Source: Trichoplax sp. H2 | Lineage: Eukaryota | Assembly (NCBI GenBank): GCA_003344405.1 | Contig: NOWV01000015.1 | Coordinates: 434,001-498,000, forward strand | Length of the DNA: 64,000 nucleotides | Reading direction: 5' to 3' | Part shown: positions 3,801 to 63,913 of the stretch, one piece after another | Layout of the letters: each line of letters begins with the position of its first letter | Position numbering within the stretch: position 1 is the stretch's first letter | Position numbers and translations under genes: made by a program | Notes under the pieces: generated by a model | The model's database searches: none | What the model was told of the DNA's origin: nothing | What the model saw: the letters and a program-made list of their open reading frames with translations, nothing else

Positions 3801-6800
3801 CTTTTTGGAGGGGACTCATCATAGAATGGATGAAAAGAAACTTTTGAGGATTCTTACTTAGACTATCCTTATAAAACGGGTTACGGATCAAATTCGACCT
3901 TTTGTTGCTAGTATTTTTTTGTACCTCTGGTAAATTGACACTGGCCTGTGTCAATGAGTGAAGGTTCATAGCGAACAGTAGACAGTAGTCGATATTAAAT
4001 AAGCAAATTAGGATATGTACATTAGCTAATATAGTACTGTGCTCTGAAATAGTGTCAATAATTCTCACCTTACTAAAACTACGCCGTACTACCAAGGGTT
4101 GTAGTATATTATTCTCGCAGTTATTACAGGCTAGACTAGGGTATAAAATGAAGCGGTGATGCATAATTACAATTTGATATCATGGACAAATCTAATGACC
4201 ATATATTAGTCTACAGCACTGTACCATAAGAACTTGAAGCCCCTTGAGGGTAAATTCACCAATATATATAAATAGGACTATTAGACTAGCGAAACTGAAC
4301 TTTCCGCTGACTTTTGCCCTATTGCTACAACAATCATTCTCCATAACGTAGAATTCTTAATAGTGATTGCTTGTTGCTCTTCACTTCCAACCTATAAACA
4401 CAATGCACTACATTGCCATCGTGTCCTGTTTAAACGTTTATAATGTAGATATGCTGATTTACAGTACAATAGAATAATTTTATTGCCATATTTTTTTATC
4501 TATCAAGTTATCAGCCTATCGTAATGATCGTAATTATAATTAATTTTGGGGGCATCACCCCTTCTTATTGCTTGGCTGTTGTTTTGTTTCATGTGCCTTT
4601 TGTATGGACCGATGATTGCGTTCATTGCGTTGTTTGGCCTTTGTATGCGACAGCATCGCCGATTGGACACCGAAAATGATTGGGACGCAGTAAATAGTCA
4701 ACAACGTATTAAAGGTCAGTAATAATGTTGAATAAAAGTTATAATGCAGCGATGTCTTCATTTTTCATCTTGAAGTAGTTCTTGTCATCCAAATGAATAA
4801 ATAAGCCGTTCCTTATTTAATTTTGTTCTTTAGTACGATCTCTCCATTCATGTTGTATTCGTCACTTTTTATGTTTGCTCTATTTTTATTTTATTTTATT
4901 TAAATACAGTTATACAGTACATACAGTAACATAAGAATTGTGAAGGTACTAAACGTAGACTGTACGGTACTGTCCGCATGTAACGACGCCGTAGTGGTAC
5001 CAATGATATCGAACAGTAATAACAGTCAGTCAGTGCCGATGTGATACGCGGATATCATCGATAGAGACATTACCCTGTTGAATATTTATTCTTAACCCAA
5101 ATGATGTAAAACTGTAGAGTATTTATCCTTCAGTCAATATTGCGAGACTAACAATTTCAAAACGTACCAAAATAAGAACAGAATCAAGAAATGGGCAAAT
5201 AGAAATTGTTTTTGTTCCTCAATGACTATCGACATCAGCACATTCATGGTGTAAAGATTTATGAACTATACGTATAGTAAATCATAATTTGTATAAATCT
5301 TATTATGTGGCATACGGTATATTGTCTGCTAAATGGACTAAAAAGGAATTGACGATAAAAGTAGGATTATCTGATTATACAGTATTGCTAAACGTAGCTA
5401 AGAAAATTGTTTATCTATCGCGTGCACATAAATCATTGACTAACATTCTAAGTACGGCCAAGCTATTGTTCTGCTAGTAGTTGAAACTTATAAACACGCA
5501 GTCAGTTTGCACTAAGTTGAGTAATATATTGGACAGTATTCCGTTAAAATCCGCCAACGAATGACCAATATTGTAGTACGTAATATAAACTGCATCAACA
5601 TACCAGCCGTAGGTTTATGAAAATAAAAATGGTCTACATATTATTATCCATCATACCTACTTTTACAATACAAGAACTATTACTATTTATTGATGATCGC
5701 ACTTGTACTTTATAATTGTAGCTATCAATAATATGTTCTAGTCCAAAATCCGTTCGTAAATCATTGCTGTAGTTGTTACCGCGGCCAATACATTATAAAT
5801 AATTGTACTATGTAGAAATTTTATATACTTATTTACTGTATATGTACCATGTGTATGTACTGTATACATTCGTATGTATGTACTATATATTCAATTAAGG
5901 AAGATAAACTTCTTATTGCTTACCTTCTGTCAGTGTATAAAATGCAAATTTATATTTGATAACGACCCTTAAACATTGTGTTTTTTTATTAAATGAATAC
6001 AATTTTATAACTGCACAAATTCCTACTTCTTTTGTTGAATTTATGAGATTAAGCATGAAATATATTAAAATGATACAAATTATTCAGAATGCATTTTTAC
6101 TTGTTCTAAAATATATTTTTATGCTACCCTATAGTGAATGGTAATGAAGATCAGGTTTCGCCTAATCCTCTCAATGCACTAGGGTCCAATTTTAGCAGTC
6201 CTACCATGCTTGATATAGGAAAAACGATAAGTATCTTACAGTCATTTGATCAGCCAGCTAGTAAACGATTTTGTGGGCCTCAATTATTACAGCAATCAAT
6301 TAATAATAACTACGGTAGCAGTCATGGTAGGCATCGCAATGTTACCGAAAGTATCATATTACGACCTTACGCGTCATCGGTTTGGAAGTCACCGCGCTCA
6401 GCTAATGGATCTTCTTACAAAAGACGCTCAGCTAGAGCCAGTTCTTTGACTTGTAGCGAATACGATTATAACCAGGCAAATCGGTTAAGCCCGCCGCAAT
6501 CACCAATCATAAGGCCAGCTTCAGAATCCCATGCTATGTTTTCCAGTACGGAGTGGAACCATTGCTCTACTAGCTCAAGTAATTCACAAGAAAATGCCAA
6601 TTCCGCAGATGAAGCGAATGACAATCCCTGTAGCCGTAATACCTACTTAAAGAGATTTACCGTTACTCGTTGCAAATCTCAACCGTGTTTTCCAACAGAT
6701 GACAACAACGATAGTAAGAGACACCAATTAAAAAGGCAAAGAAGTGACGAAGGTCTACTAGTACGCCCGGCATTAGACTTTATGAAAATGAAAGAGGTAA

Positions 6801-7477
6801 CCGCGTCAGATTTTCGTTATTTTAGGAAGGTTGATGTCTTGGTCTAGTTGTTACAAGAAATTATCGTTTAATTTAAAATTGAAATACTGAAAATTATATT
6901 TGTATCAATCTATAACTTATACATTACATATGTAGCGATTAACTACAAGTGCAGTTTGTTAGTTTTCGTTTGTGTGATACTTAATTATTACTTTTATCGG
7001 TAATTCCGTAGACGGCATTCTATAACATTGAAGATCGCATAAAAAATTTAAATTTTTCTGGAAATCAGGTAAACGCATCAATTAATTAGTTTGTAGTCGG
7101 ACATACGTTTAAGTTATTGCGGCATGATATTAAGAATGTAACAAAGCCAATAGGGAACAATTCTCAAGTACGATGTATGTTGTGTACGATAGAGCCAGTC
7201 CCGATCAAGGACAGACGAGAATAATTTATTATTTAAGGATGGAAACAAGATGGGCGCAAAGGATGAAGGTAGTTGCCAATACAATACCGCTGAGAAAATT
7301 GGGCGAATGGCAGTGGACCATAAGATAAGCTGCTCAAATGCCCCTCGTGAAAGTGTGTCCTCTTGTCATGAATTCAATGATGGAAATGATGTTACCAATT
7401 TTTATTCTGATGGGATAGATTCGGAAATTGACATAAAGGCTATAGAAAACGACTGCCTTGAGACTAGTGACTATTAA
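835..7477 (+). CDS. FAM53: FAM53 family protein (multi-exon: 835-906, about 6135/6155-6796, 7012-7068, 7238-7477; a small intermediate exon may be unresolved)
   Basis: Exon 1 MISFLTCQLQRQSLDDVK followed by donor GTTAGT resembles the FAM53 N-terminus (MI/VTLITEqLQxQsLDdL). The large exon carries SSVWK, RCKSQPC and KRQR..RPALDFMKM. The last exon has EIDIKAIEN (FAM53 ELDxxxIEN). GT/AG boundaries keep frame. Confidence 0.8.
1107..1126. repeat. (TA)10 microsatellite
   Basis: Read directly, in FAM53 intron 1. Confidence 0.9.
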
Positions 7478-31124: not shown

Positions 31125-33505
31125 TTGCGCCAATTTGCAATGGCCGTAGAAATCCAATATTCCTCCATCTACGGTCCTGCTTTGAAGGAAAATCGACTAG
31201 AAATTCGCTATATTATTGAGCAGTGCACAATACGACAGCTTAAACATGCCCATGATATACTGTACTTGTACAATTTTCTCAGATGACGGTGATTGACGAT
31301 TTCATTCTGACCATTAATAAGGTAATCGTAGCTATGTTACTGCGATCCTATTTGCTGATCTTCTTGGTGTGTGCTAAGAATCATCACAGCGCCAATTTGC
31401 AATGGCCATAGAATCCAACATTCCTCAATCTACCGTCCTACTTTGAAGGAAAATCGACTAGAAATTCCCTATATTTTTGAGCAATGCACAATACGACAGC
31501 TTAAACATGCCCATGATATACTTGTACAATTTTCTCAGATGACGGTGATTGACGATTTCATGCTGACCATTAATAAGGCAATCGCAGCTATGTTACTCCG
31601 ATCCTATTTGCTGATCTTCTTGGTGTGTGCTAAGAATCATCACAGCGCCAATTTGCAATGGCCATAGAATCCAACATTCCTCAATCTACCGTCCTACTTT
31701 GAAGGAAAATCGACTAGAAATTCGCTATATTTTTGAGCAGTGCACAATACGACAGCTTAAACATGCCCATGATATACTTGTACAATGTCAATGCATGTCT
31801 AATGTATCAGTAGGACAGCTTAAACGAAGTGTATAAAAAAATTTATGCAAAATGATCAGGCCTATTGTACAATTTTCTCAGATGACGGTGATTGACGATT
31901 TCATGCTGACTATTAATAAGGCAATCGCAGCTATGTTACTGCGATCCTATTTGCTGATCTTCTTGGTGTGTGCTAAGAATCATCACAGCGCCAATTTGCA
32001 ATGGCCATAGAATCCAACATTCCTCAATCTACCGTCCTACTTTGAAGGAAAATCGACTAGAAATTCCCTATATTATTGAGCAATGCACAATACAACAGCT
32101 TAAACATGCCCATGATATACTCGTACAATTTTCTCAGATGACAGTGATTGACTATTTTATGCTGACTATTCAATGAAAAGTAGACGTTAACTAAAGCAAC
32201 ATTGCGCCAATTTGCAATGGCCGTAGAATCTCAATCTACCGTCCTACTTTGAAGGAAAACTGACTAGAAAATTAGCTATACTGTACTGTTGAGCAGTGCA
32301 CAAGACGACAGCTTAATAAACATGCCCATGATATACTTGATATGGATTATAGAAACTTGTTTGCGCCGTATATCCGATATGATATACTTGACACTTGCAC
32401 AATTTTCTCAGATGACGGTGATTGACGATTTCNNNNNNNNNNNNNNNNNNNNTGACTATTAATAAGGCAATCGCAGCTATGTTACTGCGATCCTATTTGC
32501 TGATCTTCTTGGTGTGTGCTAAGAATCATCACAGCGCCAATTTGCAATGGCCATAGAATCCAACATTCCTCAATCTACCGTCCTACTTTGAAGGAAAATC
32601 GACTAGAAATTCCCTATATTATTGAGCAGTGCACAATACGATAGCTTAAACATGCCCATGATATACTTGTACAATTTTCTCAGATGACGGTGATTGACGA
32701 TTTCATGCTGACCATTAATAAGGCAATCGCAGCTATGTTACTGCGATCCTATTTGCTGATCTTCTTGGTGTGTGCTAAGAATCATCACAGCGCCAATTTG
32801 CAATGGCCGTAGAAATCCAATATTCCTCCATCTACGGTCCTGCTTTGAAGGAAAATCGACTAGAAATTCGCTATATTATTGAGCAGTATACAATACGACA
32901 GCTTAAACATGCCCATGATATACTTGTACAATTTTCTCAGATGACGGTGATTGACTATTCAATGAAAAGTAGACGTTAACTAAAGCAGCATTGCGCCAAT
33001 TCGCAATGGCCGTAGAATCTCAACATTCCTCAATCTACCGTCCTACTTTGAAGGAAAACTGACTAGAAAATTAGATATACTGTACTGTTGAGCAGTGCAC
33101 AAGACGACAGCTTAATAAACATGCCCATGATATACTTGATATGGATTATAGAAACTTGTTTGCGCCGTATATCCGATATGATATACTTGACACTTGCACA
33201 ATTTTCTCAGATGACGGTGATTGACGATTTCATGCTGACCGTTAATAAGGCAATCGTAGCTATGTTACTGCGATCCTATCCGCTGATCTTCTTGGTGTGT
33301 GCTAAGAATCATCACAGCGCCAATTTGCAATGGCCGTAGAATCCAATATTCTTCAATCTACCGTCTTATTTGGAGGAAAATCGACTAGAAATTCCCTATA
33401 TTATTGAGCAGTACACAATACGTCAGCCTAAATATACCCATGATGTACTTGACACTTGTATAATTTTCTCAGATGACGGTGATTGATGATTTCATGTTGA
33501 CCATT
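31125..33505. repeat. Tandem satellite-like array, 256-bp monomer with variant units
   Basis: GCGCCAATTTGCAATGGCC..GAAGGAAAATCGACTAGAAATT.. recurs about nine times, with a period of 256 between 31371 and 31627. N gap at 32433-32452. Confidence 0.95.
32433..32452. other. Assembly gap (20 N)
   Basis: Run of n inside the satellite. Confidence 1.
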
Positions 33506-40517: not shown

Positions 40518-43500
40518 TTAATCTGCCCCTTCTTCCGTGTTCTCCTGGTTTTCGTCGGTATTATTGGACAGTAGACATTGTTTAAATTTTTGTAAGGCTT
40601 TAAGGCATATTTTATCGTTTACAACTTCAAGCGCTTCCAATACCAAGTCAGTTAATATTTTAACATTTGGCGAATTTAATTTATCAATTGAAAGCGAATT
40701 AAGCATTTTACACCACACGCGAAGTAAGGGTCCTTCGTGGTCAGATAAAATCTCGTTACAAATCTTAACAGCCAGATCGTCATGGACATTCACCAGATTT
40801 TCTATTGTCCGCTTTTCCTTTTGATGTTCCTGATTAGCTTGGAAAATGTGTAATGACGTCAAATGTGTCACTAACTCTGCAACATTATTCGCATCAATAT
40901 CTCGTAAAGCAGAATCATCAGGGGCATCAGCAATTGTGTGCAATGTAGGAAAGAATGCATCCAGTAGACATTGCTGATTTTCATTGCTATTTAGAGCGAA
41001 GGCTTGAAAGAAAACACCTAAGCAATGTCTTAGGTGTAAGTCGTCCTCGGACGTTGGACTATACCATAGTAACAGTAACCTTGAGATCAGCTTCGGACTA
41101 GATAATCGACCCGATAGAAGTAATTTGGCAAATCCCTCGGCTGCTACTTGTCTTATTTCGCCCAGTTCATTATCTAAGAAACTTGTTAGAATCGCTAACA
41201 ATTTACTGGAGGTATTGAGGCTATTCTCGTCTCCATTTTGTTGGTTACCGTCCGAAGTTTGTTCTGTGTCACTTTCACTGCATATCTTAAATCCAAAAAC
41301 ATGTAGCAAGTCAAAGACAGCCTTCAGTGCCACTAGCCTCACTTCTAATTGATCTACTTGCATGATCTGTAGGAATAATATTAATTGAATGCGAGCCCGT
41401 TCCTTGTTAATGATGCTACACACACTAAGGCACTCAACAGCAACCTTGCGAATAACTGGATCTTCATTTTGTACACTGGGCAATATCAAAGAATCCATTA
41501 GATCGTTAATAATTGGATGTACAGATGTCGATATTTCTGTTACATTTGCAAGCATTTCTTTAAATATCGACAGACAACGATAGACAACTTCATTTTCATC
41601 TTGAGCTATAACTGTTTCAAACTCCGTAGCTTCGCAATCATCTTTCAATTGTGATTTCTGTTCCTCCAGTTCTTGTATCGATGATTTTATTTCACCTGCT
41701 GAGCTGAAATCTTCTTCAGCTACACATTCTTCTAATTTCTCTTTTAGTTCATTTATTTTAACTCGTAAACGTGCAATCTTGAGTTCCATTTGTCGGATTT
41801 CCTCTTTAGAATATTTCAATCTTGTAGAAACCAGAGGTTGACGAATATCAGATATGACTTCAGTAATTTCGGAAACATAATTTTTACAATCTGGTGATAG
41901 CTTCTGATATTGTTCCATCACAACAGGTAGTAGAGTTGGTAGTAAATCAAGTGCCATCATTTGCTCTTTTAAAAGTTTGCGAAAGTTCTTCCTGCCAACT
42001 TCATCAGTTAAATCCATTACTCCAGCAAGCATTAGTAACTGTTCCAATATGAATGCACGAGTTATAGTGGATTCTTCATCTTGCTTATCATACGGTAAAG
42101 CAATAAACCTTTTAATATATTCGCAAAATACCGATAATTCTGGTAGTATTTTATCTAAGTATTCCTCGCCATGATTCTCGATACTATTTAAATGCTGTGT
42201 TAAACAGCGCCAATAAAGAACTATTTCACTAGTTATAGAGTCTTCTTTGGGGACCTTAGCTCTACCATAAACAACGACATTAGCATCATTGCTGACAAGT
42301 GGAGCGATTAAATCTTCCAATGGAATATCCATAAAGAGCATATTTAACACAGATTGAATTGTTTTTGTGGCATTTTCAACGTCTAAATGTTGTAATAGTA
42401 CTAGGACATTACTGCCTAAACTCACTAACCAATTTGTCAATAGTTTACCCTTGCAGATGAGTTGGATACCTTTCGATCTATCTTTTAGGCCATTTTCTAA
42501 TAAATCTAGTCGTTGATTAATTGTCAACGATTTAATACCCACTCTTTCAGCTAAGACTTGATAGGCGACACGTCGTACACTTTCCTTGATATCTTTAGTA
42601 CGTTCAATAATTTCGGGTAAAGTAAGAGCATTGATTGCAATATTGGCAAGCACAGCACGGCGAACTTCGGCACTGGAATCCTTGCTAATTAATTCAATAT
42701 ATTTTTTGATCACTATACAGTCTTCATCGGTTGGATCTTGTAGACGAGCAACTGCACGAACTGCTTGAATGCGTACAGCGGGTACTTTATCGTAAAGTCT
42801 TTCAAGCATGGCTTCGTATATTAAGTTATACAAATCATCATCAATTTGCGCATCTTCACTTAAATTATTGAGTAATTTGCAGACTAGTTGACAAGATCGA
42901 TAGCGTATTCCACGATCCTGAGCTTGATTAATTGATAATAAAAACTGTAGTAAAAATATCATAAACTGATTGCTTCGCTCTTGTATTGCAGTTTGATCAT
43001 CGTCATTTTCGTAGTCGCCGACTGTTTCAGTAGCAAATCTGGCAATAAAATCGATTAGTCTTTCAACAGCGGCTTCTTGCTTGAAAACGATTAAAATATG
43101 GCGTAAAGCAGCAACAAAATCTTGACAAAATTCTTCATATCCGTCGTCTCTTAGCTATAAAAGTATAGTAGTTTACAAAGTAAGTTAAAATTGTTAGTAT
43201 AACAAGTTTTAATTTTAATTTATTTGTAAAGATGCCATCGTAAATCATTATCAAGGATAGAAGATCAAGTACGCTCTGGAATTTTTACGATTTATTCTTG
43301 CCGACTGGTTTACTAAGGTAATCAATGTTCTTTACTAATATTTAAATGTTATTCTTTCAATGATCAATGATGAGACAGTAATAGCAGGTAGAGTACTTTT
43401 AGTTGTATCTACTAGTAGATCTAAAACCAGTCACAATTCTTTCCAACCTGACTATTGCAAGAATTCTATATCTACAACTTACTTCTCTCATTTGTTCCAG

Positions 43501-53790: not shown

Positions 53791-55174
53791 CTTTGCCAAA
53801 ATATCGAGTTAACTGGCATCGCTACGGGCTCTCTGTCCTTGATCCTGACTTAGAGTTTTTCGAATAGTAATCTTATTGAAGTTCATAGTTTGCGACATCA
53901 ATTATTCGATCTAGGATATTTAACTTGGATCTTTTTAAATGCCGATTTGTACAAAATAGTAATAGATTATCCTAAATCTTCGTTCTAGTTGTAGATCCCT
54001 TCAGATGCAATAGATAATCTATTACACAGTTTTAATGGTAGCGGCCGAGAGTATTTATGAAGAGGAATAGAGTAACGATTTGGACGTGATAAATGTACAT
54101 AATGTAATAGAATGAAATACTGTATATCGCGACCTCTGACAACAAGCTCCATGTCTATATTATCCGTGTTATGTCATCAAATCTAGTAAAGGCAAACTGA
54201 AATTGAGATATTTTTACGTTGCTAGCATATATAGTAAGGCAGTAAAATTATGGTCAAAATAATTTCATAGTTATATAATTATTAATATGGTACGTATCGT
54301 GTAAGCAAACAAAATCCTTCTGCAAATAAATCTGCAAAAATTAATTAATTTCTTGTGCTCAATATAAGGTATGTTTCGATCAAATAGAATAGGATATTGA
54401 TAACAGTATTCTATACTATAGAATTTATTGCTATCGATTACAACAACTCAGAGTATGTAAGCAAGGTCTCAAATGGAGAAATTGGGCTTGTTAAATCTCA
54501 ATAACAAAGACGCTTCTATTACGTAGGATCAAATAATGTTTATTATTGTAAATGCATCTAAATCACCTATGCAAGTAATCGATAAGGTGACTGACACAGT
54601 GCGCTTACATTAAATGTATTGATTCCTTATTTGTATTTCATCATTCTGTAGCAATGTCGATATACTAAGAGAACCATATATCACAGGGTTTGACACAAAG
54701 TTGTTCTTAAAAGCAATGGATAGTTTTGTTGTCATGTTAACACATCAACCATAACATTTATAAAAGTAAACAATATCCACTAGGCATCTCAGAATCCACA
54801 TAATGATATCTATAAACTGGCAAATTATGAAGTGATATATCTTAAAATATACCATAAGGTTAAATTGAAATTAAAACTTTAGAAAAACTTTCCTAAAATT
54901 TAAGAAAGGCTACTTATTACTTTGGCTATTAATTAATGTATGAAGTATCATTTATTTTACCGTAAAATACGTATACATGAATGCATAATATAACGTTAGT
55001 TCAATAAGATGGAGCCAATTAGATAAAAAAAGGAGATATAAACTAATAATATGATACATTAGAGCATGGTCATATACAACCATAAAATAAGATCTGTTAT
55101 ATCTACCATCCAGTATACAATACTGTGATATAATTGGCCATATTATTTATTTACAATCAGTATCTAATGTCCCA

Positions 55175-58100
55175 TCAATTTAAAGGAACAGACTTATTCG
55201 CCAATCGCCGAGATCGTCGAGATCGTCCTGGTTGGCTGTCTGCACTATCTATATTACTAGATTTACTGTCATTATCCATGGATGATGACTCTTTTGTCGC
55301 AGTCAATAATTTTTTAACTTTCCGGGTTGCCTTAAGAACAGGTTTCCCTTCTTCACTACTGTTGTGGGTAGTATCAGATGTTCTTAAATTATCTTTTTTT
55401 TGCGTACGTCTTGATTTTCGTCCAGTAGTAGAAGCAGGAATTACATCCACAGTTACATTGTCACTACTAGAATCATTAGGAGCTGCAGAACGAGTAGATG
55501 ATCTAGTTTCACGTTTGATTACAGTTGACGATCTTGTTGATGTGCGGTTCTGACGTTCATCTTGACTATCATCACAGCTCTTACTATCCTTTCGACTCTT
55601 GCGTTTTGGCAGCACAAAGGCAGTAACCTTATCTTCTTCTTTTGCGATAGTACTGATGGCATGTGAGGTAACTGTATTTACAGGAGCCTCTTCATTTACT
55701 TCAACTTGTTTATCAACGTCCTTACATAAATTTATTTTTTCATCATTACCAGCATTTGCTTCGTCAGCATTAGTTTCGCTTGCCAATTCACTTATATTTT
55801 CATTTATCTTACGGGCAGAACGACTTCTTTTTGACACTACTTTTTCAGATTGAATGCTTTCCTTACTTGTAGTTTCAGTGGTAGTTTTACATCCTTCTTC
55901 AGTTGCATTTTCATCTTTCCTACGTGCTAAACGAGTCTTTTTTGGCAAAATCTGATCAGATTGGATACTTTTGTTAATTGTTTGTTGCTCAAGAATTTTA
56001 CTTTTTGTACGAGTTGCTCTTGCATTACTCCTTTTAACGGGCTCTGGCTCCTTTTCGACTAACTTTTTCTGTCGTAAATTTCTTGTACTTGTTGGATGAT
56101 CGCTCACGCCTTCTTTAACAGCTTCTCGCTTTGGAGTAAGTTTGGTAGTTTTATTTTCTAACCTTACCTCTAAATCAATTACATTCTTTCCATCAGGTGT
56201 AACTGAGCACTCAGAATCCGCTTTCTTTGTTGATACAATTTTTCGTTTCCTACTAATTCTAGTAGGCTTGCCGTTTTCTACAACTGCTGCTGCCGTATTA
56301 TCAGAATCTAGGGTCATATTTTTATGATTTGCGTCTATAATATTGGTTGAAGATGTATGGTCTACTTCTCCCAAATCATAAATCAAATTAGTTTTATTCT
56401 CTTTGTTAGTATCGCGAATAACCTTTTTACTTTTCCTTCCTTTTGCAACGATATCCGGTGATGACAAATCATTTTTCTTACAACTTGACGTTTCACTTTC
56501 AGATAATTCAGTTATAGGTGTCATCAAAACTACGTTATTCCATAGTTTTTGTTCAACTTGTTCGCTTTTGTAAAGACGTTTCTTAGCCTTATGATTGTTC
56601 TTCTTTAATTTTTTCATTCTTGGTTCTTCAGTAACTGCATCGTTTATTTTACGCTTACCACCAGTGCGTATTAACGTTGAGGTTGAATCTTCACTACTAA
56701 TGACATTATTTGTAATATCAGGGTTAGTTGACTTGACCTTACGTGAACTTGTTCGCCTTGAGTTAGTCGCTTTACTTCTGGTGCTTTTGGGTGCACGCTT
56801 GCATCGCATTGTGGAATTCTTAAGAGTAGTGGCTGTCTCAACGTTCTTTGGTGATGTATTGATTTGCTTACTTTCAGAAAGTACTATTTCATCTCTTTTA
56901 GTGTCAAGGCTAACATGCCCTTTGTGAGTCTCGGTATCTATAAAATCTGCAGTTGTTGATGTTTTAGAAGTCGGACTTGTATTTTCAACCGTATTTTGTT
57001 GATCATGCTCACTAATATAAGTAGAGCTGTTAAATAAATCCGCCAATTCAGTCATAAATTCATTAGTAGTCTCATTGGAGTCTTTAGGTAATTGAAATAG
57101 TTCTTTTAATCCTTTGTAGATAGTTTCTTGTTGACTTGCTGATGTATGTACTCCAGATGGTAATGTAAATAATCGCGGTAATAAACCAACTTCAACACTG
57201 TAACGAGCACTTTTCTTATTACTACGTGGCGTTTTTAAGAGTCTTTTCAACCCTTTCAAGCATTGATCTTTACTCACATCTCCTTTACCTTGCTTAGAAC
57301 GTGGCGTATTTGCTATTTCCTTCAATGCAAACAAAATATTATCCCGTTCAGCTATACTTTGTGCACTCAATTTGGCGCGAGGAGTTTTCAGCAAATATCC
57401 CAAAGATTTCAAGGCTTCATCTTGATTATTCATTTCTTGTTCATTTACCTTAGGGCCGTGTTCGCAAGTCATTTCTGCCATTAATGGCTCGCTAATCGCA
57501 GCAGCATGTTCGCAAATTTCAGAACTTTTATCTGAAATTGGTTCAAGGTGATCTTGTAAGTTGTAGATTGTAATCTCGCCATCGTTTAATGCATCTGCAT
57601 TCACACTATTTATTGACTCATTCTTATCCTGTTGCATAATAGGTACAGTTTCTGTCTCGGGAGAATTAGCTATTTTATGTGAGCTGGGCATCTCAAACAT
57701 TTGTTGAAGACCATCAAAAACTGGTTCAAGTGATGTATTCTTGGCACGTTTGGGTGTTTTAAACCATTGTTCAAGAACAGATAAATATTCATCTGAAAAT
57801 TGACTTTTCAATTTAGGTGTTTTAAGCAGTCTCTGTAATCCATCATATGCGGGTTCTAACGACGGATCCCTCTTACTTTTAGGTGTTTTCAACCATTGCT
57901 TCAAAGCTAGCAAGTTCTCACTACACGAATTATTTTTAAGCCTTGGTGTTGTAAAGATATCTTGTAGACCCTCAATGTTACTTTCTTCGAGAGATACTTT
58001 AGCTGGTGTTTGCATGATATTATTTTCTTCTGAATTGGATACATCCATTGCAGTTATCTCACTAGTAGATATAGTTTTGATATTTCTCTTAGGAGAATTC

Positions 58101-61100
58101 ATGACTTGTAGACCTTCAATGTTACTTTCTTCGAGAGATACTTTAGCTGGTGTTTGCATGATGTTATTTTCTTCTGAATTGGATACATCCATTACAGTTA
58201 TCTCACTAGTAGGTGTAGTTATGATATTTCTCTCAGAAGAATTAATGACCTTTAGTGAGCTAGGTGTCTCAAATAATTGTTGAAGATCATCGAAAACTGG
58301 TTCCAGTGATGTATTTTTGGTACGTTTTGGTGTTTTAAACCATTGTTTAAGAACAGACAAATATTCATCTGAAAATTGATTTTTCAATTTAGGTGTTTTA
58401 AGCAATCTTTGTAATTCATTATATACTGGTTCTAGTGATGGATCCCTCTTACTTTTGGGTGTTTTCAACCACTGTTTTAAAACTAGCAAGTTCTCATCGG
58501 ACGAATTATTTTTAAATCTTGGTGTTTTAAAAAGATCTTGTAGACCGTCGATGTCACCCTGTTCAAACGATACTTTAGCTGGTGTTTGCATTACATAAGA
58601 ATTTTCTTCAAAATTGGATAAATTCATGGAAGTCTCGTTATTAGTGAGTATAGTATTATTATCCATCTCAAGAGAATCAGCAAATTTTACCGGGCTAGGT
58701 GTTCTAAATAATTGCTGAAGGCCGTCAAAAATAGGTTCAAGTGACGTATTTTCAGCACGCTTTGGTGATTTAAACCATTGCTTAACAGTAGATAGATATT
58801 CATCTGAAAACTGGTTTTTGAACTTAGGTGTTTTAAGCAGTCTTTTCAGTCCATCATACATCGGCTCTACTGCAGGATCTCGTTTACTCTTTGGAGTTTT
58901 CAACCATTGCTTTAGTACCTGCAAATTCTCCTTACACAAATTATTGTTTAATTTTGGTGTTTCATTGGGATCTTGCAGACCTTTAATGTAACTTTCGTTG
59001 AGAGACACCTTAGCTGGTGTTTGCATGATATCATTACTTTCTTCTGAATAAGTTGTATCTATTGGAGTTATCACTTTGGTCAGTACAACTTTGCCTTCCA
59101 TTTCGGGAGAATCGGCAATTTTAAGTAAGCTGGGTGTCTCGAATAACTTCTGAAGACCATCAAAAACTGGTTCAAGTGGTGTACATTTTGAGCCTTTTGG
59201 TGTTTTAAACCATTGTTTCAGAACAGATAAACATTCATCTGAAAATTGACTTTTCAATTTAGGTGTTTTAAGCAGTCTTTGTAATTCATCAAATACTGGC
59301 TTTAGCGATGGATCTCTCTTACTTTTAGGTGTTTTCAACCATTGTTTTAGAGTTGATAAGTTCTCATTACGCGAACTATTATTAAATGCTGGTGTTTTAA
59401 AAAGATCTTGTAAACCTTCAATATTGCTTTCTTCGAGAGATACTTTAGCTGGTGTTTGCCTAAGATGAATACTTTCTTCCAAATTAGATGTATCCATTGC
59501 CGTCATCTCACTATCGAGTGTAGTTTTAATTTCTGTCTCTGCAGAGTCAGCGACTTTTAGTGAGCTAGGTGTCTCAAATAATTGTTGGAGACCATCAAAA
59601 ACTGGCTCAAGCGATTTATTTCTGACACTTCTTGGTGTTTTAAACCATTGCTTAAGAGTAGATAAATATTCATCTGAAAATCGGCTTTTCAATTTAGGCG
59701 TTTTCAGCAGTCTTTGTAATCCATCATACACTGGCTCCATTGCGGGATCTCTTTTACTCTTTGGTGTTTTTAACCACTGCTTTAAAACTAATAAATTCTC
59801 ATTACCGGAATTATGCTTCAAGCTTGGCGTCTTAAAGAGATTTTGTAAACCTTCAACATCATTCTCGTTAAAACTTGTTTTCGCTGGCGTTTGCATTTGA
59901 TATGAAGTTTCTTCAGAATTGGATATTTCTAATGAGGTTACCTCATTCATTGGAGAGGCAATATTCTTAGAAAAAATAGGTGTCTGGAATAATTCTCGAA
60001 TTCCATCTACTACGGGTTCCAGCGGAGGATTTTTAGCACCTTTGGGAGTTTTATACCAATGCTTTAATACATGCAAATATTCATCTGAAATTTTTCGGTC
60101 TATCTTAGAGGATTTTAGTAACTTTTGTAAACCATCGTAAGCAGGTTCCATAGTAATATCTCTTTGATTTTTGGGTGTCTTAAGCCATTCTTTTAAAACA
60201 AGCAAATTCTCATCAGAAGATTTACCTCTAAACTTTGGCGTTTTAAAGAGATTTTGCAATCCTTCCAAATCATAATCTGAAGGCAAAGTTTTAACAGGAG
60301 TTTGATTATAAATCGAATTCCTTAGTAGATTATTAGACTTTATTGCTTCACTTGTTGTTTGCACTTTGCTTTCATTAACAGCAATTGTTGTCTTGTCAGC
60401 ATTATCTAATTGCTCAGTAATGGCTTGATCATTATTATTAATAGGAACTGATTCCTGTAACGAATCAACGCTAGCTGATTCATATTCTGATCCATTTTGA
60501 TACTTGTCTTGATTAATGGAATTTACCGATGATGACCTAAAACTGCTTCTTTTAGCTGTATTAGCTCTAAATGTTCCTGCTATTAAGTTATCATCACCAC
60601 GTCTACCACCTATGGTGGGTATCCAATGATTACTATCACGCCTTGGTTTAATAAGTGGCTGATCACTATCAACAGTAGTAAACTGGCATTCTTTCTTATT
60701 GAGATTGCTAATACTGCCTAATTGCAAATCGTCTTGAACAGAGACTATGTCCCCTTGAACTTTCGTAGGTATATCAACTATTAAAAAAGATACATTTCCA
60801 GCATTAGACTTTATTTTATTTGTCCATCGAATTATATATTATACATCTAAAGTAGCTCTGTACTATTTCTATCGTTTATGTGAATAGCCTTACCTCTTTC
60901 TTGATTTTGGGACTGAGATGTATTGCCTTCATATTCATCTTCATTCGTATCATGAACGCTGCTCAGATTTGATTGATTAATGGACCTTGCTTCAATAATA
61001 AGGCCATTTGGTGTTACGAAAGTTGGAGTTGACATTAATAAATTGATTGGATTTTGTTGCGCTTTACCAATCTCATATGCTGGAGTCATGCATTGTTGCT

Positions 61101-63913
61101 GATTGACTTCAATAGGAGTATTTTTTTCATCTGTTGAGCTGCTGCTACTACTACTATTTAGCAATGTTGATAAGGAAGATTCATATAATGTCTTACTGTT
61201 TTTTTTCATTGAGCTTTTCGATCGACGTTTATTTGTTGGAGTGTTTATTGGTGTTTTACAAACATTGTTGGTTTCAGTGGTAGAATTAGGTTGAATCATT
61301 TTTTCAGTTGAAGTAGCAACATTATTATTAATAATAAGCTGGTGATTCAGTTTATCGGTGTTTGGCGTGGCGAAGAGATCTTTAATCAAGTGATGAGCTT
61401 CTGCAAAGCACCTATCTGGTGTTGAGTTTTCCATCTCCTGGAATGCGAATTAAATATCAATATGATATTCCCATATCATGACTGTTTCGTTTATAATAAT
61501 ATAATTAATTAATATAAGGTTAAACTGCTATAATAGAAAGACTTACCGATGGTACAGATTGAGGAACGTCATTATCTTGATTATTATCATTACAGATATC
61601 TTGACTAGCTTTGTTTTGCTGAGATGAACGCCTCTTTCGAGTATCTTTCTTCCACAATCCAGTAATCATTATATCATCGCTTCTTTTATCACACAAAGTA
61701 GGTACCCAGGCGTTGCTACGTCGTTTAACACTACTTTTATCGCAAATTTTCTGCCGTCTTGAAGTTTCAGCTGAATGTCGTCTCGTTATTATATTGGTTC
61801 GAAATGACCTGCGTTTAGTAATACACGGGTCATCATTTTGAGATACCGCTGTAAATTTCAATTCCGGATCCAAAGAATTAGCCATAGAGATTTGACTTGA
61901 GTTATTATCGTTTGGATGATTTGTTGTTGCTGAAGATCTAGTTTCTATATTATCTTCCGCTTTATCTTGATGATTTGATTCTTGCAAGGAAACTAGGTCA
62001 TTACTATCGAAAGTTAGCGTAGAAACGATATCAACTAAACTATTGCTTTCCTTTTCATCTTCATCGAGAGCAATTACAGAGGGAGTTTTAAGTATCGATC
62101 TACGTTTGCTATGACTCTTTACTTTACCAGCAGAAGGCATTGGAGTATAAACTGGTTTTCTACCTCGCTTTACAGGAGTATCAGTCGGATTTTTCTTACT
62201 ATATAATTCAGGACTTAAATGCGGTCCAAATGTTACACTTTTTCGATTCCTTTTCGGTGCAAAGAATTCATCAACCGTCTTCATTAGACTATCAACAGAA
62301 GTAATATCATTCAGAATCCTCTTTTCTGGAGTTTTCGAACGAACATTTGCAGATCCATCATTATTTTGGCTATTGCTCTGTTCAGTCTTTTTTTCAGCAG
62401 TAGTATTATTAGCTGGAAAGGATGTTGATGAGCGTCTTCCTCTAGATCGGCGATTTTTAATTTTACCATCTAATCGAAAGCTATCATCCATGCTTTGATC
62501 TGAAGTGGACACCTTACTATCACCGTGATCTTTCATTAATTGGTCATTGCTAAGAAGTGTGTTAATCTCAGAATCAATATTTGCTTGCTGCTTACACTCC
62601 GATGTTAACGAATCATTTCGTAGGGTAAGGACAATATCAATTTGATCTTGCTTCTTACTGTCCGTATCGTCTACGAAGCTTTCTTCTAACTTAAAACTTC
62701 TTCTCCTAATTTGTTTGAGTTTCTTAGCTGAAAGCTGTTGTTGACATTCCAAGCCAGGTATTAAGATGCCAGTATTACTGTCTCCTTGACCTGAGATATT
62801 CTCCTTGTCATCGACGGCATCCTAGACGTATAGCACAATCAGTCATAATGCATTACATTAGTTGGCTCAATTTTTAGCAAAACTTGATATAAATATCTAT
62901 ATGCTATGAGTACATTAATTTGTTTATTTCTATCAGATAGTCAAAAAAGAACATACGCAATACAGTACAATCACGTTCAATCTGAATGGTCCAGAATAAG
63001 AGCGTACGTATATTACATGATTTGACGAAAGATGATCACTATTTTGTTATTTGTTTATAAAATGATGGCTACGAATCAATATATATTTATCCAATCATCT
63101 TATATATTTACCTGCTTGTTAGGTGTATCTATTATGATGTCACTTTTTTTGTATAGAAAGGTTTTATTGCCAATTTTAATCTTAGTACCATCTTTTATTC
63201 GACATTGCCTCTGTAAGAGGGCTTCACCGGCTACATGGATCTGTGCTGAAGGTTGTAAACGCTCTATCCAAGCCTGCATGTGTTTGATATTGATAAAAAT
63301 AAATTAATGGTAAAGAATTAGAAAATATTTTGTGATACGCGTATATATCGATTCTACAGTTACTTTATCTTAACTACAGTAATAATGATTGTCTATTTAT
63401 GATAAGCCACTTTTATAACATGTTGAATTCAAAATTGATTTTACTGTGCATACGTCTATGATGATATCAAGGCGACGAACATTTATATTTTTATCATTCT
63501 GTCGTAGCACTGTACAATACTGTACATTAGTAGCCTTACAATTGACTATTTAGCATCATGGTGTATTTGACATGGTACATCACCTTGTTGTTGGTGTCGA
63601 TGAATACTCTCGCATGTTGATTCTGAACACTGGCATTACGAATACGAATATCGCAGTTGTCGTCGCTACAATGTGGATATATTTAATAAATGATTATATA
63701 ATTATTAATTGTACGCGTATATATTTAAGCTTGATTTTATTCGAGGTTATTAAGATGCAAATAAAGCTGTTTCCAAGAAATAATTGACTGAACATACCTG
63801 CCAAAAATGCTTTGCTTATCAATTAATGGCACTTTAGATCCCTCAGTTCCGTTTCTTCGAATCAAGACAACGTTACCATATTTACCTGCACTATTGAATG
63901 AGGACTGTTCCAT
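55175..63913 (-). CDS. MKI67: Ki-67-like chromosome-periphery protein (exons 63913-63798, 63665-63584, 63273-63112, 62821-61547, 61437-60894, 60777-55175; 2593 aa)
   Basis: N-terminal FHA (VVLIRRNGTEGSKVPL..FG..CDIRI..QH..IKDGTKIKIG), PP1 motif RKSVTFGPHLSPELY..PTDTPVKRG, tandem repeats with GLQxLFKTP/LFETP motifs in one giant exon, and a basic R-x-T-R-rich tail. All six exons join in frame (7782 nt). An alternative ATG lies at 63943. Confidence 0.85.
57660..60305 (-). repeat. Coding tandem repeat array, six units of about 435 bp (145 aa) plus one 144-bp partial duplication
   Basis: QTP anchor positions at 60297, 59886, 59451, 59016, 58581, 58149 and 58005 give spacings of 411, 435, 435, 435, 432 and 144. 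Confidence 0.95.

Follow-up and report, generated by a model that had tools for sequence, protein, structure and literature searches.

The placozoan gene described here is very probably orthologous to vertebrate Ki-67 (MKI67). We regard orthology as the best explanation of its features, with a mechanism proposed by analogy with the vertebrate protein. It lies on the minus strand of the window analysed, a 64,000-nucleotide stretch of contig NOWV01000015.1 of Trichoplax sp. H2. The initial annotation of this DNA, made from the sequence alone, had called it a full-architecture Ki-67-like gene in an apparently early-branching invertebrate, and the comparison with vertebrates bears this out: BLASTP against fish and bird Ki-67 returns three collinear matches, with E-values of about 1e-12 for the FHA domain, about 3e-6 for the protein phosphatase 1 (PP1) dock and 1.8e-40 for the repeats, and among solved FHA domains the nearest is that of human Ki-67. 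A placozoan Ki-67 gene, and the proposed ancestry of Ki-67 relative to RepoMan, have been in print since 2014. What may be new, as judged from sequence, is a repeat motif shared with vertebrate Ki-67 and a degenerate phosphothreonine signature in the FHA domain.

A six-exon gene with a giant last exon

The coding sequence (63913..55175, minus strand, as are all features given below) runs from an ATG at 63913-63911 to a stop codon at 55175-55177 in six coding exons that total 7782 nt and encode 2593 aa with no internal stop, and all five introns are of the GT..AG type. The ATG lies in exon 1 (63798..63913), where the FHA domain also begins, and the joint of this exon to exon 2 (63798/63665) is present in RNA contigs from sequencing runs X4, X5 and X8. 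Exon 2 (63584..63665) holds the FHA core (GS-DDNCDIRIRNASVQNQH) and exon 3 (63112..63273) the C-terminal half of the domain, both placed by RNA joints and by the FHA match. They are followed by exon 4 (61547..62821), whose 425 disordered residues include the PP1 dock as well as [KR]RRS sites that are conserved, and by exon 5 (60894..61437), whose 181 residues are rich in S, T and N and slightly acidic. The giant last exon 6 (55175..60777; 5603 nt including the stop) contains the repeats and the tail. The 3' UTR is traced to the limit of the RNA contigs (54583..55174), which end at 54583, 54604 and 54699.

The transcript structure is firm. Contigs from X4, X5 and X8, three of the four runs and drawn from three studies, join exactly at every one of the five introns; run X1, the fourth, is DNA-like, with no splicing across the introns, and was excluded from the RNA support. 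The six-exon model, for which the initial annotation had proposed an RNA-seq check, thus stands with all introns bridged, and the FHA domain, PP1 motif, giant repeat exon and basic tail that it listed all fall within the one coding sequence. An acceptor AG just 5' of exon 1 (63920-63919) joins an upstream exon outside the window: the spliced contigs of the same three runs extend 5' of 63919 with letters absent from the window, so at least one further 5' exon lies beyond its end. Over the 36 nt visible ahead of the ATG the reading frame stays open. An open reading frame at 63397-63549 that looks exon-like at first glance is intronic by both the gene model and the RNA contigs.

Over residues 59-2651, RDD45548.1, which is annotated as a "hypothetical protein" in Trichoplax sp. 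H2, matches the encoded protein with 100% identity, and its 58-residue N-terminal extension disagrees with the RNA contigs. The encoded protein shares a 90% cluster with B3SB24 (TRIADDRAFT_61466), its counterpart from the same gene in the sister strain T. adhaerens, to which it is identical in nearly every 100-column alignment window outside gene-model differences; the two database models, RDD45548.1 and B3SB24, are unlike at the N-terminus and differ by a 22-residue gap. B3SB24 was aligned as a Ki-67 homologue, "Ki_Triad", by Booth et al. (2014, eLife; PMC4032110), who also placed Ki-67 as ancestral to Repo-Man and presented a parsimony scheme on which vertebrate branches are marked. Both the finding of a placozoan Ki-67 and the main inference drawn from it are therefore already published. 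That work used the PP1-binding region only, and the sections of it available to us contain no description of the repeats or of the FHA residues. A study in fungi (2021) and a preprint (2026), in their accessible parts, have since traced the family to a deeper origin.

Ki-67 motifs in the repeat exon

Vertebrate Ki-67 (for example the fish and bird proteins P0007-P0011) has the same order of parts as the Trichoplax protein, namely FHA domain, PP1 dock, repeats and basic end, and in both the repeats occupy one giant exon, which a 2021 review gives as invariable among vertebrates. In Trichoplax this 5.6-kb exon contains six tandem super-repeats and one 48-aa partial copy (57578..60304; aa 885-1793), which Tandem Repeats Finder describes as 4.0 copies with a period of 435 nt. 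Each super-repeat is 137-145 aa long and consists of five units of about 21 residues followed by an acidic spacer, an arrangement of units and spacer that differs from vertebrate Ki-67, and the exon as a whole holds about 30 copies of the unit, which matches the vertebrate "Ki-67 motif". The consensus shared with vertebrates is an acidic pair, L, x, G, a hydrophobic residue, K/Q, x, two hydrophobics and KTPKxK. Within each super-repeat a block that is mildly basic and holds 5-7 Thr-Pro sites alternates with the acidic spacer. At least two degenerate units persist in the stretch after the repeats (56987..57577; LLKTPR at aa 1855 and 1906). Similarity among the super-repeats is higher at the DNA level (70%) than at the protein level (61%), as it is among the repeats of human Ki-67, for which the 2021 review gives 73% and 57%. 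KEN boxes number three against 1.4 expected from composition, which is not meaningful.

The homology of the repeats to vertebrate Ki-67 is specific. When exon 6 alone was searched against 5.8 billion sequences, the only other proteins matched were vertebrate Ki-67 proteins, with E-values down to 5e-29; the seven matches among 7998 scored candidates were the protein itself, five named Ki-67 proteins and one fish protein with Pfam KI67R. The real repeat score of 142 bits compares with a maximum of 29.3 over 200 shuffles and 22.3 for the reversed sequence, and a 23-residue hidden Markov model built from 30 Trichoplax units detects 6-16 units in every one of six vertebrate proteins and no unit in any of 30 shuffled copies. 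The Pfam KI67R profile itself stays below its cut-off, with 17.2 bits against 32.4 for two super-repeats and no match on the whole exon. According to the 2026 preprint, in the parts accessible to us, sequence conservation is lacking in the disordered region of homologues outside the vertebrates; here the repeat motif itself, beyond the FHA domain and the PP1 dock, is recognisable between Trichoplax and vertebrates by plain sequence search.

A Ki-67-subtype FHA domain with a degenerate signature

Solved structures and BLASTP assign the N-terminal FHA domain, recognised as such by Pfam, to the Ki-67 subtype. The joined exons 1-3 score 40.5 bits against the Pfam FHA cut-off of 20.7 (exon 2 alone, 19.3), the best solved relatives are the human Ki-67 structures 2AFF and 1R21 (E 2.8e-7; the next, 3gqs, 3.1e-3), and BLASTP matches to the N-termini of fish and bird Ki-67 run from about 1e-11 to 3e-12. 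An AlphaFold2 model from a five-row alignment was poor (mean pLDDT 57); Foldseek with this low-confidence model again placed 1R21 and 2AFF as its top two hits, with an E-value of 8e-4 and an rmsd above 10 Å. A word-index search with the FHA region, a method too insensitive here, recovered only the query among 86 candidates.

At the same time, the residues expected of a canonical phosphothreonine-binding domain have largely changed. In ungapped alignments with human, fish and bird Ki-67 and two bacterial FHA domains, the FHA signature GRSHNN, made up of G-R, S-x-x-H, N and N and given in the accessible parts of the 2026 preprint, reads GSQHAA in Trichoplax: R is replaced by S, S by Q and both N by A, so that four of the six residues are missing and only G and H are kept. 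Canonical phosphothreonine binding has therefore probably been lost. The Ser codon (AGC) at the Arg position is created by the exon 1/2 junction, which the RNA confirms, and T. adhaerens B3SB24 carries identical changes at the signature residues, reading FGS and VQNQH as in H2. For specialists, Trichoplax Ki-67 may be useful as a natural variant with a predicted degenerate phosphothreonine pocket.

The PP1 dock and the relation to RepoMan

Downstream of the FHA domain, the PP1-binding motif RKSVTFGPHLSPELYSKKNPTDTPVKRG (62120..62245) comprises an RVxF-type KSVTF and then the Ki-67/RepoMan extension, and Pfam PP1_bind recognises it at RKSVTFGPHLSPEL (62245-62120), where the score of 34.5 bits exceeds the cut-off of 27. 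KSVTF replaces the RVSF of vertebrate Ki-67 and fits the PP1-docking pattern [RK]-x(0,1)-[VI]-{P}-[FW], as quoted in the accessible parts of the 2026 preprint. Conservation of the dock is strict: 14 consecutive residues (R193-L206 of exon 4) are invariant when compared with a 49%-identical relative.

The initial annotation had also seen mixed Ki-67 and RepoMan features in this protein, a claim that has weakened because fish and bird Ki-67 also carry LSPE: its serine is present in all five sequences fetched, human Ki-67 reads LRPE, and the likeness to RepoMan comes down to the Thr of V-T-F. LSPE thus sets the Trichoplax protein apart from human Ki-67, not from Ki-67 generally. Human RepoMan is not known to have an FHA domain or Ki-67 repeats. 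The Trichoplax protein has an FHA domain together with Ki-67-motif repeats, and its architecture is not that of RepoMan/CDCA2, in which PP1_bind occurs without either; common to both is the PP1 stretch VTFG..LSPE....P..TP..G (5INB, 5IOH).

These observations bear on a reading in which a single pre-duplication placozoan gene would serve both as Ki-67 and as RepoMan (CDCA2). It is the reading of the initial annotation and in essence the published one, and we lean towards it, if only slightly. The ancestral placement of Ki-67 in the sections of Booth et al. (PMC4032110) available to us favours it, as does the view of the 2021 review that Repo-Man probably arose by duplication of the Ki-67 gene. 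In searches of the PDB, exon 4 aligns with the PP1-bound peptides RepoMan 5inb_B (E 5.7e-5), Ki-67 5j28_C (E 1.2e-3) and 5ioh, and by itself it reaches a slightly higher score for the RepoMan peptide (26.2 bits) than for the human Ki-67 peptide (21.8); the nearest ESM Atlas clusters are CDCA2, at scores of 0.87-0.88 that fall below the 0.9 level and serve as a lead only. Against these points, the LSPE that had appeared RepoMan-like is found in fish and bird Ki-67 as well. A library-wide phmmer search with exon 4 gave four matches (the query itself, a 47%-identical 427-aa fragment and two PP1_bind fragments) and no second Trichoplax protein among them; a 26-bit match cannot pass E 0.001 in 1.8 billion proteins, and, the 40-residue motif being below its reach, the search says little about a second gene. 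A word-index search of longer proteins with exon 4, again too insensitive, matched none of 4668 candidates.

The basic tail and the comparison with bridgin

The K/R/S/T-rich tail (55178..56986; aa 1991-2593) is defined by its charge and basic clusters, with a pI of 9.84 and a net charge of +39. As a further difference from vertebrate Ki-67, it lies inside the giant exon. With respect to the C-terminal LR-type chromatin-binding domain of Ki-67, a profile of five vertebrate C-termini (last 350 residues) detected no significant similarity in the tail, so that the tail is presumed from its charge to be the chromatin-binding part.

An FHA domain, a disordered middle and a basic DNA-binding tail likewise make up bridgin (Bgi1) of Cryptococcus neoformans and its fungal relatives, a likeness we draw from the description in the accessible sections of PMC7794384, where bridgin is said to act at the kinetochore. 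The Trichoplax protein might by extension be a linker from kinetochore to chromatin instead of a coat on the chromosome surface. We consider this improbable, even though the same sections name Ki67 as the metazoan homologue of bridgin and state that the basic region of human Ki67 can substitute for that of bridgin, since the Ki-67-motif repeats of Trichoplax match those of vertebrate Ki-67. We give almost no credence to convergence, in which an unrelated FHA protein would have gained its PP1 motif and TPK-rich repeats independently. In favour of that view, each of the three modules is short or low in complexity and KI67R stays below its cut-off, but the three collinear matches fall on the same vertebrate proteins, the best solved FHA relative is Ki-67, with four orders of magnitude separating its E-value from the next, the repeat exon search found only Ki-67 proteins, and the shuffled controls lie far under the real score.

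Proposed mechanism and wider meaning

With orthology to Ki-67 as the preferred reading, a general mode of action can be proposed by analogy with the vertebrate protein. Consider a Trichoplax cell entering mitosis. The basic C-terminal tail would hold Ki-67 on chromatin, and the long disordered repeat region would project outward from the chromosome surface. Phosphorylation by mitotic CDK would then invert the charge that the basic blocks carry in the super-repeats, and PP1 docked at KSVTF...SPEL would allow this phosphorylation to be reversed at mitotic exit. The Ki-67-subtype FHA domain, for its part, would probably bind a partner without phosphate, perhaps via the conserved CDIRI edge strand.

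More broadly, it is possible, though we stop short of calling it probable, that the Ki-67 motif is a sequence-specific element that predates the split between placozoans and bilaterians, and that the placozoan FHA domain has lost phosphothreonine binding and kept the Ki-67-specific CDIRI strand. Were the motif indeed that old, the repeat region would have a conserved partner or a kinase/phosphatase code, and would be more than the "generic biophysics" for which the 2026 preprint argues in the parts accessible to us. Were the loss of phosphothreonine binding also borne out, the phospho-dependent link to NIFK would lie outside the ancient core function of Ki-67.

Results

The Ki-67-like gene resolves, from stop-to-stop frames and the sequence of the window, into six coding exons on the minus strand (63913-63798, 63665-63584, 63273-63112, 62821-61547, 61437-60894 and 60777-55175). 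All five introns begin with GT and end with AG, and the joined frame of 7782 nt encodes 2593 residues without an internal stop, its stop codon and ATG falling exactly on the limits proposed in the initial annotation, 55175..63913. RNA support was examined in four of 22 sequencing runs (X1, X4, X5 and X8). In X4, X5 and X8, which represent three studies, each of the five predicted introns is bridged by single contigs, with skips of 116, 109, 290, 310 and 132 nt (allowing for +1 offsets) whose ends read CT..AC on the plus strand, that is, GT..AG on the strand of the gene. Contigs from X1 read through the introns, behaving like DNA. The gene is real and was correctly observed. The repeat-encoding part (approximately 57816-59558) is covered by short, broken contigs, as repeats would give, and contig 3' ends at 54583-54699 put the length of the 3' UTR near 0.5 kb. 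Within the poly-Ser run of exon 5, contigs of X1 and X4, but not X5, are 3 nt shorter than the window at 61138 (minus strand), an in-frame deletion that is probably a length polymorphism.

The 5' end extends further. Spliced contigs of X4, X5 and X8 continue past 63919 in letters absent from the window, and an AG acceptor lies at 63920-63919, upstream of the ATG exon; together these imply at least one more 5' exon upstream, so that the real 5' exon is outside the window, past its end. The 36 nt seen ahead of the ATG contain no in-frame stop, and the start codon is therefore not settled. The database protein RDD45548.1 ("hypothetical protein TrispH2_003568 [Trichoplax sp. H2]") is 100% identical to the six-exon model over its residues 59-2651, preceded by a 58-residue extension that ends ...YVSD ahead of ETM. 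The RNA contigs splice other letters onto 63919, and this extension is thus unsupported. RDD45548.1 shares a 90% cluster with its T. adhaerens counterpart (XP_002117471, UniProt B3SB24), the "Ki_Triad" of Booth et al. 2014 (PMC4032110), whose model has yet another N-terminus, likewise at odds with the contigs, and lacks 22 residues.

The FHA domain encoded by joined exons 1-3 scores 40.5 bits against the Pfam cut-off of 20.7, and its best solved structures are those of human Ki-67's FHA domain (2aff/1r21, E 2.8e-7; next FHA domain, E 3.1e-3). FHA domains share few conserved residues, GRSHNN, and these take part in phosphothreonine binding (10.64898/2026.06.18.733134). We compared these sites in ungapped alignment stretches with human Ki-67, four Ki-67 proteins of fish and birds, and the bacterial FHA domains 3gqs and 6hc0. 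Where vertebrate Ki-67 has FGR, VSK(E/Q)H, SVNPT and NGE, Trichoplax has FGS, VQNQH, PSAQI and AGE; G and H are retained, while R, S, N and N become S, Q, A and A. RNA contigs confirm the junction of exons 1 and 2 that creates the Ser codon (AGC) of FGS, and the T. adhaerens protein has identical residues at the signature sites. Judged from these residues, the phosphothreonine pocket looks degenerate. The longest stretch identical to vertebrates, CDIRI, lies within a predicted strand (residues 42-47), which we infer to correspond to beta-4, described as pairing with a NIFK strand (10.64898/2026.06.18.733134).

Pfam PP1_bind matches at 34.5 bits (cut-off 27), and this stretch aligns with the RepoMan (CDCA2; 5inb, 5ioh) and Ki-67 (5j28) peptides of the PP1 co-crystal structures. 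A relative fragment, 49% identical, stops at the same exon boundary; RKSVTFGPHLSPEL and KKNPTDTP are invariant between it and Trichoplax, which we read as a sign of strong purifying selection. The initial annotation had seen mixed Ki-67/RepoMan features here. RKRVSFGG.LSPELFDK, however, occurs in each of the five Ki-67 proteins compared from fish and birds, so the serine in LSPE is usual among Ki-67 proteins, human LRPE being exceptional; the Thr of V-T-F does match RepoMan and is the sole such residue. Taken by itself, exon 4 matches the RepoMan peptide a little better (26.2 bits) than the Ki-67 peptide (21.8 bits), and its nearest Atlas clusters are CDCA2, with sub-threshold scores; both are weak results. 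When exon 4 was run by phmmer against the whole library, four proteins came back, RDD45548.1 first; given how short the PP1 motif is, this says nothing on a separate CDCA2. Two PP1_bind motifs stand in tandem in a metagenomic fragment of 279-283 aa (P0003/P0006; Pfam 65.8 bits, two stretches). Between residues 159 and 620 (62821-60894, minus strand) stand six [KR]RRS-type motifs (IRRRSF, KRRSI, KRRSF, KRRSN, RKRRSS and KRRSK), mostly retained in the 49%-identical fragment, which presumably resemble basophilic-kinase sites, such as those of Aurora or PKA.

Both the FHA domain and the PP1 dock are encoded outside exon 6. Used as the sole query against 5.8 billion proteins, this exon had seven matches: its own protein, five annotated "proliferation marker protein Ki-67" (E 5e-29 to 7e-17; four from fish, one from a bird), and one fish hypothetical protein with Pfam KI67R, the Ki-67 repeat model (E 2e-4). 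Composition-corrected BLASTP against vertebrate Ki-67 reached 1.8e-40, with FHA, PP1 dock and repeats forming three collinear matches per full-length vertebrate protein. The true repeat region scores 142 bits, against maxima of 28.5 bits in 100 residue shuffles and 29.3 bits in 100 shuffles inside 21-residue windows, and 22.3 bits for the reversed sequence. Six super-repeats of 137-145 aa each (residues 885-1793; 60304-57578, minus strand), with an additional 48-aa partial copy, each comprise five units of ~21 aa followed by a 28-36 aa spacer. The unit consensus is.s.ee.ldgLqqlfKTPk.kk in Trichoplax, PEPAEALSGVKQLLRTPKQKPEP in the bird Rhea and QpveEDLTGikqmMKTPKQKkQl in catfish; the human motif, TPKEKAQALEDLAGFKELFQTP (PMC8354752), has the same pattern. 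An HMM built from 30 Trichoplax units found 6-16 units in each of six vertebrate proteins; 30 shuffled copies yielded none. Pfam KI67R itself scored 17.2 bits on two super-repeats, under its cut-off of 32.4, and did not match exon 6 as a whole. As described for vertebrate Ki-67 (PMC8354752), the repeats lie within one giant exon, and resemble one another more closely at the DNA level (mean 70%) than at the protein level (mean 61%). Each 109-aa unit block has a net charge of +2 to +7 and 5-7 S/T-P sites (43 in 916 aa of the repeat region), and each spacer a net charge of -3 to -5. When the basic tail (residues 1991-2593; pI 9.84, net charge +39) was compared with the C-terminal 350 residues of five vertebrate Ki-67 proteins, no sequence similarity emerged.

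Elsewhere in the window, ~12 kb downstream of the Ki-67 gene and on the same strand, an 878-aa open exon (40521-43154, minus) encodes the condensin subunit Cnd3/CAP-G (Pfam Cnd3 270 bits, with HEAT repeats), placing two mitotic-chromosome genes side by side, possibly by chance. Frames 31359-31667 and 33067-33339 (both plus) share near-identical ends of ~45 residues, ...FSQMTVIDDFMLT.NKAI.AMLLRSY.LIFLVCAKNHHSANLQWP, a local duplicated element, and open frame 6110-6847 (plus) matches the FAM53 family (34.1 bits, cut-off 27).

Discussion

The initial reading of this gene, as a Ki-67 homologue and putative pre-duplication ancestor of Ki-67 and RepoMan, is largely right; it is not new, having been in print since 2014. 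Booth et al. "identified Ki-67 as ancestral to ... Repo-Man", with a parsimony scheme (PMC4032110), and a 2021 review states that Repo-Man probably arose from Ki-67 gene duplication (PMC8354752). A 2026 preprint places T. adhaerens among candidate homologues, in a single main-text mention (10.64898/2026.06.18.733134), and the work on bridgin, a fungal protein with FHA domain and basic tail, names Ki67 as its metazoan homologue, of ancient origin (PMC7794384). Taken together, these sources mean that both the Ki-67 identification and the main inference were already published. To this picture of an ancient Ki-67, the Trichoplax gene may add two modest details: repeats with a recognisable Ki-67 motif, and an FHA pocket that looks degenerate.
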